Source of the DNA: Anaerolineales bacterium
GTDB taxonomy: Bacteria; Chloroflexota; Anaerolineae; Anaerolineales; E44-bin32
Direction: 5' to 3'
Length of the DNA: 64,000 nucleotides
Assembly (NCBI GenBank): GCA_034430595.1
Contig: DAOUEL010000011.1
Coordinates: 68,463-132,462, forward strand
Each line of letters starts with the position of its first letter. Positions within the stretch are counted from its first letter, which is position 1. Of the stretch, positions 5,958 through 20,951 are shown one piece after another. The notes below the pieces were generated by a model. The model searched no databases and had not been told where the DNA came from. It was given only the letters and a program-made list of their open reading frames with translations. Made by a program: the position numbers and the translations under genes.

Positions 5958-7283
5958 ATGGAACCGCGCAACGTGCCGGGTGAGAAAGCCCGTGCGTTCC
6001 TCGCTCGAGACCGCGCTGTGGTCTCACCGTCGTACCCGCGCGCTTATCCCTTCATGATGGATCACGGCCTTGGCTCGGAGGTGTGGGACGTCGATGGCAA
6101 TCGCTACGTCGACTTTGCCGCCGGGATTGCCGTGAATTCGACCGGTCATTCCCATCCGAAGGTGGTCGAAGCGATCAAGGAGCAGGCCGAACGGTTCATC
6201 CACATCTCCTCCGATTTCTATCATCCGGTTTGGATCGAGTTCTCAGAAAAGCTGGCAAAGACTGCCCCGTTCAGCGAGCCAGCACGAATTTTCCTGGGTA
6301 ATTCCGGCACAGAAGCCGTGGAAGCGGCCATCAAGCTTGCTCGCTACCACACCGGCCGGCAGCAGTTCATCGGCTTCTACGGTGGATTCCATGGCCGTAC
6401 CATGGGCTCGCTCTCCTTCACCGCGAGCAAGAATCTGTACCGTCACCGCTTCCTGCCGCTGATGGCCGGCGTCACCCATGTGCCCTATCCAGACGAATAT
6501 CGGCCGGTGCTGATTCAGCGCGGCAAAGACTATGGTGAAACCATCGTCCGTTACATTGAGGACGTGGTCCTGACTAGGGCCGTCCCACCTGAAGATACCG
6601 CGGGGATTTTGATCGAACCGATCCTCGGTGAAGGCGGGTACGTCGTCCCTCCGAAGAGCTTCTTCCCGGCGCTGCGTGCACTTTGCGACAAGTACGGCAT
6701 CATGCTCATCGTTGATGAAGTCCAATCCGGCGTGGGCAGGACCGGTAAATGGTGGGCGATCGAGCACTGGGGTGTTGAACCGGATATCGTAACCTTCGCG
6801 AAGGGCATCGCTTCCGGCATCCCCTTGGGCGGCATCCTGGCCCGCCAGAGCGTGATGGACTGGCCCGCTGGCGCACACGGGAATACCTTTGGAGGCAACC
6901 CGATTGCCTGCCGGGCTGGCATCGCAACGCTCGATTTGATCGGGAACGGCATGATGCAGAATGCAGCGGAAATGGGCGAATACATGCTCGACGCGCTGCA
7001 GGAAATCCAGGTCCGACACCCAACCATCGGGCAAGTACGCGGGAAGGGCTTGATGATCGGCCTCGAGCTGGTCAAGGATCGGGACACGAAAGAGCCAGCA
7101 AAGCAGCTGCGAGAACGAGTGATTCAGTCTTCCTTCGAACATGGCTTGATCACGCTCGGCAGCGGCCAGAGCGCGATTCGATTCGCGCCACCCTTGAATA
7201 TCACCCGCAACCTAGTCGACGAAGGGCTGGGTATTTTCGAGACTGCCCTGACCGAAGCAGAGAGCAAACGTCAGACCGATTGA
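5958..7283 (+). CDS. Class-III PLP-dependent aminotransferase (acetylornithine/4-aminobutyrate aminotransferase family)
   Basis: GNSGTEAVEAAIKLAR, DEVQSGVGRTGKWW, and TFAKGIASG (Schiff-base lysine region). GGAGG lies 10 nt upstream of the start. Confidence 0.9.
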   Translation: MEPRNVPGEKARAFLARDRAVVSPSYPRAYPFMMDHGLGSEVWDVDGNRYVDFAAGIAVNSTGHSHPKVVEAIKEQAERFIHISSDFYHPVWIEFSEKLAKTAPFSEPARIFLGNSGTEAVEAAIKLARYHTGRQQFIGFYGGFHGRTMGSLSFTASKNLYRHRFLPLMAGVTHVPYPDEYRPVLIQRGKDYGETIVRYIEDVVLTRAVPPEDTAGILIEPILGEGGYVVPPKSFFPALRALCDKYGIMLIVDEVQSGVGRTGKWWAIEHWGVEPDIVTFAKGIASGIPLGGILARQSVMDWPAGAHGNTFGGNPIACRAGIATLDLIGNGMMQNAAEMGEYMLDALQEIQVRHPTIGQVRGKGLMIGLELVKDRDTKEPAKQLRERVIQSSFEHGLITLGSGQSAIRFAPPLNITRNLVDEGLGIFETALTEAESKRQTD

Positions 7284-15453: not shown

Positions 15454-15825
15454 ATGGGAGGCATGATGAAAGCAGGACGTCTGATAGCGTATATCGCCGC
15501 CGCAATTCTGATCTTTTTTGGAGTACTTGCTATCTGGGGAAGTCCATCAACCAACAAACCCGGTCTTAATCTCATAATTGGTGTAATAAGCATCGGTGCG
15601 GGGTTTGTCTTGATCTGGTTCGCCGGCCGCATGGGGCGCAATGACCGCGTGGAGATTATCCAGAAGATCGACCTCTCCGGCGACATGAATCTCGAATCGC
15701 TTCGCTGCCGCAACTGCGGGGGAGCGCTGAGTTCGAAAGACATCTCGATGGTCGAGGGCGCCCCATTTGTCAAATGCCCATACTGCGGGACGACATATCA
15801 ATTAACCGAAGAGCCAAAATGGTAG
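15454..15825 (+). CDS. Small two-TM membrane protein with C-terminal zinc ribbon
   Basis: Two hydrophobic helices (LIAYIAAAILIFFGVLAIW and LIIGVISIGAGFVLIWFAG), then CRNCGG...17 aa...CPYCG. Start uncertain: ATG at 15454, 15463 or 15466, with GGGAGG at 15456-15461. Confidence 0.7.
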   Translation: MGGMMKAGRLIAYIAAAILIFFGVLAIWGSPSTNKPGLNLIIGVISIGAGFVLIWFAGRMGRNDRVEIIQKIDLSGDMNLESLRCRNCGGALSSKDISMVEGAPFVKCPYCGTTYQLTEEPKW

Positions 15826-15859
15826 ATTGGCCGCGTCTTCAGCTGCCGAGGAGGAGACG

Positions 15860-17599
15860 ATGAATTCGCCCCTTCGCCGCGTTTCCATCTTCAACCAGAA
15901 TGGACACAGATCGCTCGCTCGCCGCTCTCGGGCGAGTCGTTGGCCGATTCTGGTTTCGCTTTCTCTCTCGATCCTGCTCCTCGTGCTCGCCGTGGTTTCT
16001 GCTTCGGGGCAGAGCTATTCCTTCAGCCTCGACCAGGAGACCGTCGATGTTTACCTTCAATCCGATGGCACGATGTCGCTGCTTTATCGGATGGTGTTCA
16101 CCAATGATCCCTCCGCACCTGCGATTGAATTCGTCGACCTCGGCATGCCCAGCCCGGCTTACGATCTATCAAGCATTGCGGCCTCGATCGATAACATCGG
16201 CATCAGTCATATCGCTAATTCCGAATACATCGACCAGGGCATCGAGCTTGGTTTGGGCTCAAACTCGATTCAACCCGGCCGGAGTGGGACGGTCGTCGTC
16301 CAGATCGCCAATGTTCGTGACATCCTCTATGAAGACACTCAGGGAGATAATTACGCCAGCGTTGAATTCTATCCGAACTACTTCGATTCGAATCTCGTCC
16401 ATGGCCGGACCGATCTCACGCTTCGCTTCCATCTGCCGCCAGGCGTCCAACCGGATGAGCCACGCTGGCACGACGCACCTGGCGGATGGCCAGACTCCTC
16501 CCCGGCGACCTACCTCGATAATGACCAGCGTGTCGTCTATGAATGGCACAATCCCTCTGCGAGTGCATCCACCGAGTACAAATTCGGTGCTTCCTTCCCG
16601 CAGAGCTATGTTCCGCCAGAGGCCATCGTCACGCCAGGCCGAATTTCATTCAACAACGATGCGCTCTTCAGTCTGTGCTGCTTCGGCGGCGTCTTCGGTG
16701 CAATCGCACTTTTTGTCGGCATCGGCATCTACTCCAGCCGGCGCCGCAAGCTGGACTACCTCCCGCCCAAGATCTCGATCGAGGGACACGGAATCAAACG
16801 CGGCCTGACGGCGATCGAAGCTGCGGTACTGCTCGAAACTCCGCTCGATCGGGTCCTCACAATGGTCCTGTTCTCGACGATCAAGAAGGGTGCAGCCAAG
16901 GTCGTAACCGAGGATCCACTTAAGGTCGAACGCCTCGAAAGCACGGCTGAACTGCGCGATTACGAGAAAGAATTTCTCGAAGCGATGATCGACAAGCCCG
17001 AGAACAAGCGCCGCAGCGCGCTGCAGGATGTCATGATCAACATCGTCAAATCGGTTCAGAAAAAGATGAAGGGCTTCAGCCTGCGCGAGACGCGTGATTA
17101 CTACAAGGCGATCATGAAGAAGGCTTGGGAGCAAATCGAGCAGGCCGAGACGCCCGAGGTGAAATCCGAGCGCTACGCGGAAGGGCTGGAGTGGACGATG
17201 CTCGACCGTGACTTCGACGACCGGACGAAGCGTGTCTTCCGTAGCGGTCCGGTATACCTGCCGCCGTGGTGGTGGTATTACCGGCCTTCAACCACGGTCG
17301 CCCGGCCAGCGACGATATCCTCCGGCCCATCCGGAGGCGGCCGGACGACGATTCAGATGCCCACCCTGCCGGGCTCGGAGTTTGCCGCCTCACTCGTTAC
17401 CGGCGTCCAGAACACCGCCTCAAAATTAGTATCGAACGTCGTCGGGTTCACCAACGGCGTAACAAAAACCACCAACCCGCCGCCACCACCGTCCAAATCG
17501 AGTGGTTGGTCGGGAGGTGGAAAGAGCGGCGGCTGCGCTTGTGCCTGCGCCTGCGCGTGCGCCGGATGCGCCTGTGCTTGTGCTGGAGGCGGACGGTGA
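15860..17599 (+). CDS. DUF2207-like bitopic membrane protein with C-terminal (Cys-Ala)n tail
   Basis: ATG 15860 preceded by GAGGAGGAG. It has a signal/anchor helix and an N-terminal domain starting YSFSLDQETVDVYLQSDGTMSLLYRMVF (DUF2207-like pattern). A second TM helix (FGGVFGAIALFVGIGIY) is followed by SRRRK, so positive-inside predicts a cytoplasmic C-terminus. The C-terminal domain is about 260 aa and ends GGCACACACACAGCACACAGGGR. Confidence 0.8.
   Translation: MNSPLRRVSIFNQNGHRSLARRSRASRWPILVSLSLSILLLVLAVVSASGQSYSFSLDQETVDVYLQSDGTMSLLYRMVFTNDPSAPAIEFVDLGMPSPAYDLSSIAASIDNIGISHIANSEYIDQGIELGLGSNSIQPGRSGTVVVQIANVRDILYEDTQGDNYASVEFYPNYFDSNLVHGRTDLTLRFHLPPGVQPDEPRWHDAPGGWPDSSPATYLDNDQRVVYEWHNPSASASTEYKFGASFPQSYVPPEAIVTPGRISFNNDALFSLCCFGGVFGAIALFVGIGIYSSRRRKLDYLPPKISIEGHGIKRGLTAIEAAVLLETPLDRVLTMVLFSTIKKGAAKVVTEDPLKVERLESTAELRDYEKEFLEAMIDKPENKRRSALQDVMINIVKSVQKKMKGFSLRETRDYYKAIMKKAWEQIEQAETPEVKSERYAEGLEWTMLDRDFDDRTKRVFRSGPVYLPPWWWYYRPSTTVARPATISSGPSGGGRTTIQMPTLPGSEFAASLVTGVQNTASKLVSNVVGFTNGVTKTTNPPPPPSKSSGWSGGGKSGGCACACACACAGCACACAGGGR
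17534..17584 (+). repeat. Coding (Cys-Ala) dipeptide repeat: 5 units, Gly, 3 units (8 Cys)
   Basis: Codons TGC GCT TGT GCC TGC GCC TGC GCG TGC GCC GGA TGC GCC TGT GCT TGT GCT. Synonymous codons are mixed. Confidence 0.95.
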
Positions 17600-18978
17600 G
17601 AAATCCCTTTCAACGTAGTTACACCTCCAGGAGCCCTTCGCCCGGGCTGCACGCATATACCCTCTCGCAGCATGGAGGGAGCGTACGGATCCATTTGAGA
17701 ATAGAGCCAGGTGGATCTGGACTTTTACTCATCAACGCCAACCGCTCGGTCCACCTTAACCCGACAGCGGGGCTGCTCGCCTGGCTCTATCTTGAAGGCT
17801 GCGAACGGGACGAGGCCACCATCCAGCTGCAGCAGCGGTATCGCATAACCAGGTCCGAAGCCCGGCGTGACGTGGAACAGGTATGGGACCAGCTGGAAGG
17901 CTTGCTGTCGCCGGAAGGCGCCTGCCCGGTCCACGACCTGGCGTTTAATATTGTCCCCCCATTTTCACAGGCGCCGAGCGCACCCTACCGGATGGACCTG
18001 GCGCTCACCTATCGCTGCAATGACAACTGCTCCCACTGCTACAATGCCCGCCCGCGAGATTTCCGGGAACTAAGCACGGAAGAGTGGTTCGCCATCCTGG
18101 ATCAGCTGTGGGAGATCGGCGTCCCTCACATCTGCTTTACGGGGGGCGAAGCTACTTTGCGTCAGGATCTGCCGGAACTCATCCGGCATGCAGAGCAAGC
18201 AGGCCAGATCACGGGTTTGCTCAGCAACGGTCGCCGCCTGCACGATGCCGGCTATGTTGCAAGTTTGGTCGAGGCTGGTCTCGACCATGTCCAGATTACC
18301 CTTGAATCGCTGAACGAAGCGACGCATGACCAAATGGTCGCGGCACCCGGTGCATGGCGCCAGACGGTGAAGGGAATTCGAAACGCACTCGAGGCAGGGC
18401 TGTTCGTCATGACCAATACAACCCTGCTGAATGCCAACGCAGGTGAGATCGGAGAAACCATCGATTACCTGGCTGAAATGGGTGTGCCCACGATCGGTAT
18501 CAATGCCCTGATTTACGCCGGTAAAGGTGCTACCGTGGGAACGGGGATTCCAGAATCGGCGCTTGAGCCGCTATTAAAGGAGGTCCGCGCTCGAACGGAG
18601 CGCAATGGACAGCGCTTGATCTGGTATACGCCCACTCAATACTGTCATTTCGATCCCGTCCAGCTCGAGCTGGGTGTAAAAGGCTGCACAGCGGCTGCAT
18701 ACAACATGTGCGTGGAACCTGACGGCGGCGTAATACCCTGCCAATCATTCTATGAGCAGCTCGGCAATATGCTCAGCGATTCATGGGATTCAATCTGGAA
18801 TCACGACCGTGCGCTCTGGCTCAGGGAGAAACGCTATGCCCCGCAGGCCTGCCAGGGTTGTAGTGTGCTTGCAGAGTGCGGTGGAGGCTGTCCGCTGACA
18901 CTTATAAACCAAACGGATGAAAGCATCCCCCAACCGCTGCATGTCCTGCCTTTAGCCGAGGCAAGTCCGGGAGGCTAG
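17596..18978 (+). CDS. Radical SAM/SPASM-domain maturase with N-terminal PqqD-like (RRE) domain
   Basis: GTG 17596 overlaps the upstream stop (GTGA) and has GGAGG 6 nt upstream. The N-terminus SGLLLINANRSVHLNPTAGLLAWLYLEG...RYRITRSEARRDVEQVWDQLEGLL follows the PqqD pattern. CX3CX2C = CNDNCSHC (18016..18039). SAM motif FTGGEATL. SPASM cysteines: CVEPDGGVIPC and CQGCSVLAECGGGC. Confidence 0.9.
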   Translation: MRNPFQRSYTSRSPSPGLHAYTLSQHGGSVRIHLRIEPGGSGLLLINANRSVHLNPTAGLLAWLYLEGCERDEATIQLQQRYRITRSEARRDVEQVWDQLEGLLSPEGACPVHDLAFNIVPPFSQAPSAPYRMDLALTYRCNDNCSHCYNARPRDFRELSTEEWFAILDQLWEIGVPHICFTGGEATLRQDLPELIRHAEQAGQITGLLSNGRRLHDAGYVASLVEAGLDHVQITLESLNEATHDQMVAAPGAWRQTVKGIRNALEAGLFVMTNTTLLNANAGEIGETIDYLAEMGVPTIGINALIYAGKGATVGTGIPESALEPLLKEVRARTERNGQRLIWYTPTQYCHFDPVQLELGVKGCTAAAYNMCVEPDGGVIPCQSFYEQLGNMLSDSWDSIWNHDRALWLREKRYAPQACQGCSVLAECGGGCPLTLINQTDESIPQPLHVLPLAEASPGG

Positions 18979-18982
18979 CACT

Positions 18983-20140
18983 ATGGAAGCGATACTCGAT
19001 CGAATCTTTGGAAAACAGGATATTCCGAGCGCCCCCGCGCCCGGAATATATCATCGCATGCTCACTGAAGGCGTGGAAAGCCCGCACCGCTTCCACCTGC
19101 GGATTGAAGCCGATGGGTCAGGCGTGCTTATCGTGGATGCCGCGATCATACTCCATCTGAACCCGACAGCTGCTGAGCACGCCTATTACATGGTTCAGGG
19201 CCAGGATGAGCGCAAGGCGGCTGAACAGCTCGCTGCTCGCTACCGTGTCAGTCCATCCAGGGCTCGCCAGGATCAGCACGAACTGCGTGAGCAGATTCTG
19301 GCCCTCGCCTCAACCCCCGATCTCGACCCTGTCGTCTTCCTTGGAATGGAGCGGATGGAGCCCGCCAGCATTCGCCCGCAAGCACCTTACCGCCTGGACT
19401 GCGCCTTGACCTATAGGCTAGATGAGAGCGGGACCCCTGACCCACTGGCTCGAGCCAGGGTTGATGCTGAATTGACGATGACTGAGTGGGAGGGCATCCT
19501 GCAGAAAGCATGGGAGGCTGGCATTCCTCATATAACCTTTACCGGAGGCGAACCGACACTTCGCGATGATCTGGGAGATCTGATCAGTTTTTCCGAGGAG
19601 CTCGGACAAGTCACCGGGCTATTGACGGATGGTAAAAGGCTGGCAGATGAGAAATATCTTGATCAACTCGATCAAGCCGGGCTGGATCATATCTTGATCG
19701 TTTACGATCCTGATGACCCGCGCTGCGAAGCGGGACTCATGAACGCGCTCGGTACGGAGATTTTCACGGCTGTTCATCTGCTGATCGAAGATGAAGCTGG
19801 TGTGAGTGAGCAGCAGTGGCTTCACCTCAAAGAGCTCGGTGTGGGCTCGGTATCACTGTCATCCACGAGTGGAAGCAGTGCCCTGGCTGAGGCGCTGCGC
19901 CAGGCTCGCGACCGAGCTGCAGCGCACGGTCTCGACCTGATCTGGGATCTGGCCGCACCCTACTCAGCCCATAACCCAATTCAAGGTGAACTCGAAACCC
20001 CGCCCGCGGGCGCCGGAACGGCCTGGCTCTACGTGGAACCCGATGGGGATGTTCTCCCGAGCCAGGGAGTGAACAAAATCCTCGGCAATCTACTGCGCGA
20101 TCCATGGGACCATATCTGGGCACGTACAATGGGAGAATGA
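18983..20140 (+). CDS. Degenerate radical-SAM paralog (PqqD-like domain retained, all Fe-S cysteines lost)
   Basis: Aligns with the preceding protein: RFHLRIEADGSGVLIVDAAIILHLNPTAAEHAYYMV vs IHLRIEPGGSGLLLINANRSVHLNPTAGLLAWLYL, and YRLDCALTYRLDESGTPDP vs YRMDLALTYRCNDNCSHCY. FTGGEPTL is retained. YVEPDGDVLPSQG replaces CVEPDGGVIPCQS. The protein ends before the CX2CX5CX3C block. GGGAGG RBS. Confidence 0.85.
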   Translation: MEAILDRIFGKQDIPSAPAPGIYHRMLTEGVESPHRFHLRIEADGSGVLIVDAAIILHLNPTAAEHAYYMVQGQDERKAAEQLAARYRVSPSRARQDQHELREQILALASTPDLDPVVFLGMERMEPASIRPQAPYRLDCALTYRLDESGTPDPLARARVDAELTMTEWEGILQKAWEAGIPHITFTGGEPTLRDDLGDLISFSEELGQVTGLLTDGKRLADEKYLDQLDQAGLDHILIVYDPDDPRCEAGLMNALGTEIFTAVHLLIEDEAGVSEQQWLHLKELGVGSVSLSSTSGSSALAEALRQARDRAAAHGLDLIWDLAAPYSAHNPIQGELETPPAGAGTAWLYVEPDGDVLPSQGVNKILGNLLRDPWDHIWARTMGE

Positions 20141-20174: not shown

Positions 20175-20951
20175 ATGGAAATGCGGGATACCATGCTAGA
20201 GCAGCTCCATCGTCGATACCTCGAGCAGGCGGTTTGGACTGCGGCTTCCAGGAGTCGCCTGCTTGATCTCGCGAATCTGGAACCCGGCTCCAGCATATTG
20301 GAAGTTGGCTCAGGTACAGGAGTCATCTGCGCCGACACCGCACGCGAGCACGATTATCAGCTCTTTGGGCTCGACATTAATCAAAAAGCCGTTTCATTTG
20401 CCACCCGATTCGATCCCCACTCAAATTATCTGGTCGGGGACGGATTCGATCTTCCATTTCCATCCTCCTCGTTCGATGCCGTCTTCTGCCACTTTCTGCT
20501 TTTATGGGTCGAAGTACCATCCAGGATCCTGCACGAAATGCTTCGCATTCTCCATCCTGGGGGCCGCCTTATAACTTTTGCGGAACCCGATTACGGCGGC
20601 CGGGTTGATCACCCGCCAGAGTTGGTCGAACTCGGCCTGCTCCAAATCGAGGCACTCCAACGAGCCGGAGCTCACCCGTTCATTGGGCGGCGTTTGCGCG
20701 GGCTGCTGCATGATGCCGGTGCACGGCATATCTTCAGCGGCGTTATAGGGGCGGAGTGGCACCCATCCGACGTGGAGCATGCTTCAAGCTCAGAACGAGA
20801 GATCCTGCTGCAGGACCTGGGCGGAGACCTGCCGGATGAGCAGCTTCGTGGACTGTTCGCGGCAGGTCAAAACGCCGCTCTTGCCGGGGATTGGACGCTC
20901 TTCGTTCCGACCTTCTTTGCACTCGGCTACGCTCCCGAAAAAATCACGTGA
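20175..20951 (+). CDS. Class I SAM-dependent methyltransferase (Methyltransf_11/UbiE-like)
   Basis: SAM motif I ILEVGSGTGV, post-I LFGLDIN, and FDAVFCHFLLLWV...LHPGGRL. Confidence 0.85.
   Translation: MEMRDTMLEQLHRRYLEQAVWTAASRSRLLDLANLEPGSSILEVGSGTGVICADTAREHDYQLFGLDINQKAVSFATRFDPHSNYLVGDGFDLPFPSSSFDAVFCHFLLLWVEVPSRILHEMLRILHPGGRLITFAEPDYGGRVDHPPELVELGLLQIEALQRAGAHPFIGRRLRGLLHDAGARHIFSGVIGAEWHPSDVEHASSSEREILLQDLGGDLPDEQLRGLFAAGQNAALAGDWTLFVPTFFALGYAPEKIT

Follow-up and report, generated by a model that had tools for sequence, protein, structure and literature searches.

A cluster-less radical SAM paralog maintained under purifying selection beside an active SPASM maturase in Anaerolineae

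The window analyzed here, a 64,000-nucleotide stretch of an Anaerolineales bacterium genome (contig DAOUEL010000011.1, positions 68,463 to 132,462), contains an operon that encodes, in order, a small zinc-ribbon membrane protein, a larger membrane protein that ends in a multi-cysteine tail, a radical S-adenosylmethionine (SAM) enzyme with a SPASM domain (rSAM-SPASM), a second radical SAM homolog, and a methyltransferase (Table 1). The second homolog, which we call the pseudo-rSAM, is the subject of this analysis. It is a full-length paralog of the active maturase directly upstream that has lost the ligands of all three iron-sulfur clusters, appears to retain the peptide-recognition domain, and is maintained by selection.

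Table 1. Features of the pseudo-rSAM gene and of its operon, in window coordinates.
Feature	Position	Strand	Basis
Pseudo-rSAM, 385 aa, cluster-less paralog of the adjacent maturase	18983..20140	+	BLASTP, hhalign, orthologs, dN/dS, AF2
Putative N-terminal RRE (PqqD-like) of the pseudo-rSAM, about residues 20-110	19040..19312	+	AF2 topology, weak profile matches
Former cluster loop, LDESGTPD replacing CNDNCSHC	19418..19441	+	Alignments
Retained FTGGEPTLR, GGE motif at the end of strand β2	19538..19564	+	F186-P191 invariant in the ortholog alignment
SPASM β-hairpin remnant YVEPDGDVLPS, both cysteines replaced	20030..20062	+	Alignments
590-aa membrane protein with two transmembrane segments, presumed substrate	15827..17599	+	Syntenic in nearly all loci
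Tail (CA)5-G-(CA)3-GGGR of the membrane protein	17534..17596	+	Identical in 124 loci
Active RRE-radical SAM-SPASM maturase, 460 aa	17596..18978	+	Pfam PqqD, Radical_SAM and SPASM above cut-offs
Class I SAM-dependent methyltransferase, last operon gene	20175..20951	+	Pfam Methyltransf_11, E 8.5e-22
First operon gene, small 123-aa membrane protein with two transmembrane helices, zinc ribbon CxxC...CxxC at its C-terminus	15454..15825	+	

In radical SAM enzymes, which fold as a partial TIM barrel, a CX3CX2C motif or a variant of it supplies the three cysteine ligands of a [4Fe-4S] cluster, and SAM is contacted by GGE, a ribose motif in β4, a GxIxGxxE-type motif in β5 and a motif in β6. The SPASM domain (PF13186/TIGR04085) carries a further pattern of seven to eight cysteines, including a C-terminal CX2CX5CX3C block, and binds two auxiliary [4Fe-4S] clusters. 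The recognition element of peptides that are made on ribosomes and modified after translation (RiPPs), known as the RRE or PqqD domain, is a winged-helix-like unit of three strands and three helices that lies N-terminal to the catalytic domain.

An earlier note, made from the sequence alone, had described the pseudo-rSAM as a catalytically dead copy that aligns along its whole length with the upstream enzyme, a description that our alignments bear out. BLASTP aligns the two proteins at 37% identity over 398 columns (E 5e-76), and a profile-profile comparison (hhalign) made from ortholog alignments of both paralogs aligns 379 columns with a probability of 100 (E 2e-107). In the pairwise alignment, CNDNCSHC of the active enzyme is replaced by LDESGTPD at pseudo-rSAM residues 146-153, and CVEPDGGVIPC by YVEPDGDVLPS at residues 350-360, eliminating the SPASM cysteines at this site. 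The last residue, 385, aligns about 55 residues short of the C-terminus of the active enzyme, so that the pseudo-rSAM does not reach the CX2CX5CX3C block CQGCSVLAECGGGC. Because just 34 nt separate its stop codon from the next gene, no frameshifted remnant of this block lies downstream. Both the N-terminal block HLRIE..GSG.L......HLNPTA and FTGGEPTL are kept.

Relative to the active enzyme, the pseudo-rSAM carries two internal deletions in addition to the C-terminal truncation, and a deleted stretch of 14 residues corresponds to one helix of the active model. Alternative cysteines able to bind a cluster, which the earlier note said would count against its proposal, are absent. The pseudo-rSAM of the window contains just two, C140 and C248. 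Among the best 80 genome loci, on which our ortholog cysteine and motif statistics are based, CX3CX2C occurs in none of the 80 orthologs, and each ortholog contains 0-3 cysteines, of which only Cys140 on strand β1 is commonly conserved (87%). All eight C-terminal (SPASM) cysteines that are conserved at ≥98% in the active enzymes are replaced or truncated away.

To locate what has been lost and kept, we aligned 62 pseudo-rSAM/active pairs (the window pair and those of 61 loci). Both paralogs share the RRE block, APYRxDxALTY in β1, ELxxxW, GLDH, GIPHxxFTGGEPTLRxDL...GQVTG spanning β2 and β3, and the hairpin VEPDGxVxPxQ...LGNxLxDxWxxIW. The pseudo-rSAM clade has lost CX3CX2C, NGRRLxD and every SPASM cysteine, all of which are kept in the active enzymes, and QITxES..HD..GAW in the β4 region, VMTNTT in β5 and GLNALIYSG in β6 are likewise lost or deleted. 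Because GGE is the sole classical SAM-contacting motif that survives in the alignment, canonical SAM binding and cleavage by the pseudo-rSAM appear very unlikely. In the remnant of the SPASM hairpin, E352, P353, D354, D356, V357 and L358 are invariant. Close orthologs all keep G150 and D153 of the former cluster loop; the loop varies across the whole clade, and for this reason we rejected it as a new functional motif. Twenty-six columns are conserved at ≥90% among the pseudo-rSAMs and differ from the active consensus, exemplified by His265 (which replaces the β5 Asn), Asp322, a PDxDP linker and a WLY motif before the hairpin.

The structure predicted by AlphaFold2 (AF2) for the pseudo-rSAM is confident, with a predicted local distance difference test score (pLDDT) of 82.8 and a predicted template modeling score (pTM) of 0.83. 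It consists of four N-terminal strands followed by three helices and then a half-barrel of alternating strands and helices. The model of the active enzyme (pLDDT 81.4) displays its elements in the same order, plus one helix and the C-terminal cluster-binding helices. Foldseek returned PqqE, SkfB, SuiB and CteB as the best PDB matches to the pseudo-rSAM model, with a probability of 1.00.

Profile searches place the pseudo-rSAM in the superfamily and in none of its curated members. PF04055 (Radical_SAM) matches residues 162-239 only, at 34.4 bits (cut-off 29.5). PF05402 (PqqD) scores 17.2 bits on the pseudo-rSAM, under its cut-off of 23.4; the N-terminus of the active paralog, with which this region aligns, passes at 25.5 bits; the NCBIfam lasso PqqD chaperone model also matches under its cut-off (E 4.6e-6). 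The Pfam scan gave no match to PF13186 (SPASM). The models for PqqE, NirJ, MftC, TIGR04347 and other NCBIfam families were rejected for both paralogs, with scores far under the cut-offs. PqqE (TIGR02109) has a cut-off of 381 bits, against which the pseudo-rSAM reaches 74.8 and the active enzyme 126.6, and the operon is devoid of pqq genes. TIGR04347 matches the pseudo-rSAM over residues 159-242 only, at 42.9 bits against a cut-off of 525.

Purifying selection acts on the pseudo-rSAM and on the active enzyme with equal strength. In 24 genome pairs with unsaturated synonymous divergence (dS), the ratio of nonsynonymous to synonymous divergence (dN/dS) is 0.03-0.16 for the pseudo-rSAM versus 0.05-0.18 for the active enzyme of the same pairs, and the protein divergence of the pseudo-rSAM is 1.18 times that of its partner. 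(A near-identical JGI copy of the locus, with only 6 nucleotide differences, was uninformative in this respect.) The open reading frame (ORF) is intact in 80 of 80 genomes, with a length that stays at about 385 aa. In a search of 5.8 billion proteins, over 120 cluster representatives matched with an identity of 52-99%, almost all of them 380-392 aa long and a few 360-366 aa; the named ones come from Anaerolineales or Anaerolineaceae metagenome-assembled genomes and carry no annotation beyond 'radical SAM protein'. In a scan of one genome per GTDB species, at least 595 species encode a relative. Where named, all are Anaerolineae or other Chloroflexota, including the cultured Pelolinea submarina MO-CFX1.

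The earlier note had proposed phylogenetic profiling to see whether the two paralogs travel together, and for the most part they do. We searched 80 genome loci and 85 further loci by tblastn with the proteins of the window operon and found the pseudo-rSAM gene in 98. In 85 of these, the active paralog precedes it on the same strand by no more than 3 kb: by up to 250 nt in 63 loci, and by 0.25-3 kb in 22, where an acyltransferase gene is often inserted. It lies elsewhere in the locus in 5 and is missing in 3 whose upstream flanks extend over 3 kb or more; the remaining 5 are uninformative. On the other side, the methyltransferase gene adjoins the pseudo-rSAM gene in 63 of the 98 loci and lies within 3 kb in 20 more. 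In a neighbor-joining tree of pseudo-rSAM and active proteins, all Anaerolineae pseudo-rSAMs form one clade whose internal topology mirrors that of their active partners. The pseudo-rSAM clade therefore goes back to a single duplication of the maturase in the ancestor of one Anaerolineae clade, followed by co-divergence with the partner.

An early-branching subclade of pseudo-rSAMs (L110, L123, L131, L136 and L129) still has the β4 block QITLASH..HD..GAW and the linker cysteine. These proteins are already devoid of CX3CX2C and of the SPASM cysteines, and cluster loss therefore came before the erosion of the SAM motifs. In four of the loci (L110, L123, L131 and L136) the gene order is permuted to pseudo-rSAM, methyltransferase, zinc-ribbon protein, tail protein and active enzyme; L129 has the usual order.

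Exceptions to the pairing are L022, L038, L043, L066 and L075. In L022 (3740-7707), the genes for the zinc-ribbon protein, tail protein, pseudo-rSAM and methyltransferase follow one another and the active gene is cleanly absent, with none within 5.8 kb. In L038, the pseudo-rSAM gene stands alone within ±8 kb. A different arrangement is seen in L076 (5922-14224), where the tail protein is directly followed by the pseudo-rSAM and a 562-aa radical SAM protein, only 40% identical to the window active enzyme, is encoded on the opposite strand beside the methyltransferase.

The pseudo-rSAM start codon (ATG) lies 4 nt past the stop codon of the active gene, with a GGAGG Shine-Dalgarno sequence 8 nt ahead of it. 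For the active enzyme, the mechanically called ORF spans 17266-18978. Its start is most likely the GTG at 17596 rather than 17266, because this codon overlaps the upstream TGA stop and the ortholog alignments begin there. The overlap of the GTG start with the TGA stop of the tail-protein gene (GTGA, 17596-17599), which recurs in L001, suggests translational coupling of enzyme and substrate. Of the 12 conserved cysteines of the active enzyme, eight belong to the C-terminal SPASM region, those of CX2CX5CX3C among them, three form CX3CX2C, and one sits in the linker that follows the RRE.

We next compared the two paralogs domain by domain, using 74 pseudo-rSAM/active pairs and 25 active enzymes from systems that have no pseudo-rSAM (solo actives); these genomes are phylogenetically non-independent. 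The RRE is the only domain in which the pseudo-rSAM is more conserved than the co-resident active enzyme. Its mean identity to the RREs of the solo actives is 0.414, versus 0.368 for the co-resident active, and it is the closer of the two in 71 of 74 genomes. In the other domains, mean identity to the solo actives ranges over 0.25-0.49 for the pseudo-rSAM and 0.40-0.66 for the co-resident active: the latter is much closer to the solo enzymes in the barrel and SPASM remnant, and the two are equal in the short linker (0.396 versus 0.398). Within-group conservation of the RRE is likewise higher among pseudo-rSAMs (0.515) than among active enzymes (0.452). The pseudo-rSAM and solo RREs share LHLNqTAaE and RYrv, whereas the co-resident active enzymes have fixed HLNpTAa.MA.l.Le. 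We read this as subfunctionalization of the RRE, in which the dead copy would have kept the ancestral recognition module and the RRE of the live copy would have been freed to change, perhaps towards binding its partner.

The presumed substrate has no Pfam or NCBIfam match at E ≤ 0.01 (a weak match to DUF2207_C reaches E 0.035). Its tail is exactly CACACAGCACACAGGGR in 124 loci, encoded by 122 different 54-nt DNA versions. Synonymous sites in the tail-coding DNA are saturated and all three stop codons are used roughly equally. Selection thus acts on the tail peptide and not on its DNA. Ahead of the tail lie a conserved FTxG(V/I)TxxTNPxP motif and a spacer rich in Gly and Ser. Judging from the two hydrophobic segments and the positive-inside rule, the tail would face the cytoplasm. 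The tail sequence has no match in the searchable full-text literature, which omits most subscription journals. The zinc-ribbon protein, whose gene comes first in the system, is kept upstream of the tail protein in loci of both Chloroflexota and Planctomycetota; it matches TIGR04104 weakly only.

A second search, centered on the active enzyme, gave 58 loci that are informative for the presence or absence of the pseudo-rSAM. In 40 of them, the zinc-ribbon protein, tail protein, active enzyme and methyltransferase occur without it, and in 22 pseudo-less loci the methyltransferase gene directly follows the active gene. Besides other Chloroflexota (L082), a complete Bathyarchaeota genome has such a pseudo-less system, with a variant tail (L083). 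Pseudo-rSAM genes are confined to loci whose active enzyme reaches 475 bits or more against the window active, a threshold that sets off one clade. Thus the pathway existed before the dead paralog, which is an accessory restricted to one lineage and not a core requirement.

Through distant cluster-less relatives, we found a second system of this kind in Pirellulales (Planctomycetota; L167, 5067-11042). Here the order is zinc-ribbon protein, active rSAM-SPASM enzyme, a 434-aa homolog, a tail protein ending in GGGCACACAGCACACACAGGGR, and methyltransferase. The 434-aa homolog has neither CX3CX2C nor GGE and keeps CDDCPGLAICAADC. In L167 and in L168 (7001-11396), the dead paralog is 417-434 aa long, devoid of CX3CX2C and GGE but with the terminal CX2CX5CX3C kept, and the tail is permuted to (CA)3-G-(CA)4-GGGR; in L168 an active gene is missing from the neighboring 7 kb. 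The L167 dead paralog scores 160 bits against its own active enzyme, 142 against the window active and 94 against the Anaerolineae pseudo-rSAM. This greater similarity to active enzymes suggests that the Pirellulales dead paralog arose independently, a conclusion that the long branches make uncertain.

Further RRE-containing radical SAM homologs that have no CX3CX2C turned up in the searches (P0169, P0187, P0189, P0191, P0216, P0229 and P0159), some of them with SPASM cysteines. All of these are closer to active enzymes than to the Anaerolineae pseudo-rSAM clade, and they may be additional independent degenerations or assembly errors. None of the cluster-less relatives (P0187, P0242, P0256 and others) belongs to a curated NCBIfam family, and the outlier P0169 led only to ordinary active archaeal homologs.

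How, then, might a dead maturase serve this pathway? We give roughly even chances to the reading that the pseudo-rSAM is a folded, selectively maintained, non-catalytic paralog that acts together with the active enzyme as an accessory substrate-presenting or activating subunit. The RRE comparison argues for such a subunit, as do the operon coupling, the equal selection on the two genes, the retention of β1 to β3 and of the hairpin, and published precedents of non-catalytic activators. The invariant tail of the presumed substrate and the apparently independent dead paralog of Pirellulales also speak for it. Accordingly worded as a model, the pseudo-rSAM would be an accessory to a four-gene core made up of the zinc-ribbon protein, the (CA)n-tailed protein, the active radical SAM enzyme and the methyltransferase. 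Its ancestral-type RRE would bind the tail protein in its cytoplasmic C-terminal part, where the FTxG(V/I)TxxTNPxP motif ahead of the tail is the candidate segment. The retained half-barrel and hairpin surfaces would dock on, position or activate the active paralog, which would in turn perform the radical chemistry on the multi-cysteine tail. By analogy, thioether cross-links and methylation are plausible products. The duplication would thus have split two ancestral jobs, with recognition passing to the dead copy and catalysis remaining with the live copy, whose RRE has since diverged. Under this model the active enzyme and the pseudo-rSAM would form a heteromer. The earlier note had likewise proposed a non-catalytic partner of the active enzyme in an active/inactive heteromer. 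That proposal is partly supported, by the missing cluster ligands, the loss of all SAM motifs except GGE, the purifying selection, the company of the active gene and the preferential preservation of the ancestral RRE; the pseudo-rSAM is not a core requirement of the pathway, as the pseudo-less systems attest.

Several observations weigh against this reading. The core system runs without the pseudo-rSAM in most other lineages, with an identical tail there, and the helper must therefore add something non-essential. L022, L038 and L168 keep the pseudo-rSAM beside the tail protein or the methyltransferase with no active gene within 5-8 kb, which fits a role tied to the substrate or to the methyltransferase at least as well as one tied to the active enzyme. 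The Planctomycete pair does not show the RRE pattern again: there HLNPTA is kept by the active enzyme and not by the dead copy. The RRE difference in Anaerolineae is modest (the mean identities given above), and it comes from genomes that share ancestry. Lastly, SPASM RiPP maturases with solved structures are, to our knowledge, monomeric.

The strongest rival, which we nevertheless regard as unlikely, is that the dead copy is a regulator, substrate trap or 'reader' to which the tail, modified or not, binds by way of the RRE and the degenerate active-site cavity. It could compete with the active enzyme, time the modification, or protect or hand over the modified tail, and no stable heteromer would be needed. 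The retention of substrate-binding parts and loss of catalytic parts are what such a protein would display; its persistence with the tail protein and methyltransferase in loci that have no active gene nearby (L022, L038, L168) and the functioning of the core pathway without it in other clades point the same way. However, a stoichiometric partner accounts better for the tight adjacency to the active gene, with its possible translational coupling, and for the mirrored phylogenies. It would also be wasteful for one operon to encode both an enzyme and its pure inhibitor, at a ratio that is likely 1:1.

Somewhat less probable still is that the pseudo-rSAM serves the methyltransferase, supplying an RRE and docking platform to a class I enzyme that has no recognition domain of its own. 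The pseudo-rSAM gene adjoins the methyltransferase gene as often as it adjoins the active gene (63 of 98 loci), moves with it in the permuted operons (L110, L123, L131 and L136), and is its only companion in several loci (L043, L066 and L075). Yet in the 22 pseudo-less loci in which the methyltransferase directly follows the active enzyme, it evidently works without an adaptor. Moreover, the order active enzyme, pseudo-rSAM, methyltransferase is the default product of a tandem duplication of the radical SAM gene, and in Pirellulales the tail-protein gene sits between the dead paralog and the methyltransferase.

We consider it more improbable again that the barrel has been remodeled for a new, cluster-independent catalytic or ligand-binding activity built from residues specific to the pseudo-rSAM clade. 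The 26 clade-specific columns, and selection as strong as on a real enzyme, would be expected of a neofunctionalized protein. The same residues are equally expected at a protein-protein interface, however, and we recognized neither a catalytic constellation nor a family match, while the former cluster loop is variable. A decaying pseudogene or annotation artefact without function, as the loss of all catalytic cysteines, the two internal deletions and the C-terminal truncation might suggest, was rejected as practically excluded by the ORF intact in 80 of 80 genomes, the low dN/dS, the occurrence in at least 595 species, the confident AF2 fold and the strong Shine-Dalgarno sequence.

Returning to the accessory-subunit reading, a bolder version joins all of its parts, and we hold it only tentatively, as a doubtful proposition. 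In this version the dead paralog would be an obligate recognition and activation subunit of a true heteromer, an architecture not known among SPASM maturases, and would have evolved at least twice, with all clusters lost in Anaerolineae and the last SPASM motif kept in Pirellulales. The invariant, protein-tethered tail (CA)n-G-(CA)n-GGGR, conserved across Chloroflexota, Planctomycetota and Bathyarchaeia, would become a new membrane-anchored motif that is cross-linked or bears a metal or cofactor.

Known maturation systems offer partial parallels. As in PqqD/PqqE and MftB/MftC, a helper without catalytic activity, equipped with an RRE of the PqqD type, would cooperate in the window system with an rSAM-SPASM enzyme whose target is a C-terminal peptide motif that is short and invariant. 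Both window proteins match PqqE best, in sequence and in fold. PqqD with PqqE is a published case of multicomponent rSAM-SPASM maturation with a non-catalytic helper (PMC10906245). By contrast with PqqD and MftB, the window helper is not a 90-aa RRE but a full-length paralog comprising RRE, half-barrel and SPASM remnant. Different from PqqE and MftC, the window active enzyme has its own fused RRE, and neither window protein reaches the PqqE or MftC cut-offs. The splicease PlpX, also an rSAM-SPASM enzyme, requires for its activation a separate non-catalytic protein, PlpY, which binds the substrate leader as well as PlpX (PMC11414181). PlpY/PcpY and the pseudo-rSAM would thus share the status of a separately encoded non-catalytic helper of an rSAM/SPASM maturase, a role that for the pseudo-rSAM is proposed. 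PlpY is small and, by structure prediction, has an alpha-helical structure at the binding site of the enzyme (PMC11414181); in the description that the paper gives, it shares no sequence relationship with the rSAM enzyme, whereas the pseudo-rSAM is a degenerate copy of the enzyme.

The NCBIfam family TIGR04347, 'pseudo-SAM/SPASM protein', likewise collects radical SAM homologs that have no CX3CX2C ligands and are kept as a family. By its name, that family has kept the SPASM domain, whereas the window pseudo-rSAM has neither the SPASM cysteines nor the C-terminal block and apparently retains the RRE. Members of TIGR04150, 'pseudo-rSAM protein, GG-Bacteroidales system', are without the CX3CX2C ligands too and occur beside an active rSAM/SPASM maturase and peptide precursors. 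We know of no curated pseudo-rSAM family that has been biochemically characterized. In Dph1-Dph2, METTL3-METTL14 and the trypanosome AdoMetDC-prozyme pair, an enzyme was duplicated and the dead copy kept as a substrate-binding or activating subunit. These are not SPASM maturases, and their complexes have been demonstrated, whereas for the window pair we infer one. The C-protein of TOMM (a RiPP class) pathways is an inactive E1-like protein with an RRE that presents the peptide to the catalytic YcaO D-protein; unlike the pseudo-rSAM, it is not a paralog of its catalytic partner.

A dead radical SAM paralog is thus not a new idea, because cluster-less homologs are already a curated category (TIGR04347). 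New here are an architecture in which the RRE stays while all three clusters are gone, a family of this size under selective maintenance, evidence that the RRE has subfunctionalized, the recurrence in a second phylum, and the host system. We found no paper on these points or on an active/dead pair of SPASM maturases in the full-text literature searched, which omits most subscription journals.

rSAM/SPASM maturases are usually viewed as self-contained, sometimes with a small RRE protein, and a dead full-length copy says otherwise. To duplicate the enzyme and then assign recognition to one copy and catalysis to the other would be a way, taken more than once, of modifying a multi-cysteine substrate that is repetitive and difficult. 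Because genome-mining pipelines label the pseudo-rSAM family 'radical SAM protein', they would count a second enzyme at these loci; reconstitution could fail if the pseudo-rSAM is left out or is taken to be active. The family further draws attention to a large uncharacterized system across bacteria and archaea, with a substrate tail that is among the most strictly conserved short motifs, and its chemistry is directly testable with four or five genes.

Two archaeal loci show variations of the core system. In a Hodarchaeota locus (L081, 6001-8091), the radical SAM gene is directly followed by a homologous methyltransferase gene, with no tail protein or (CA)n ORF within 6 kb. In the Bathyarchaeota genome (L083; CP070659.1), the tail-protein homolog has an in-frame TGA at 6928-6930 where other archaeal-type tails have a cysteine, so that VCA[TGA]AS stands against VCACAS...CACACACVSCACACAGGGAR. 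The frame reads on to a TAA just before the radical SAM gene; the TGA could encode selenocysteine, mark a pseudogene or be a sequencing error. Close homologs of the active enzyme are common in Asgard archaea, Bathyarchaeota and Korarchaeota (P0301-P0361).

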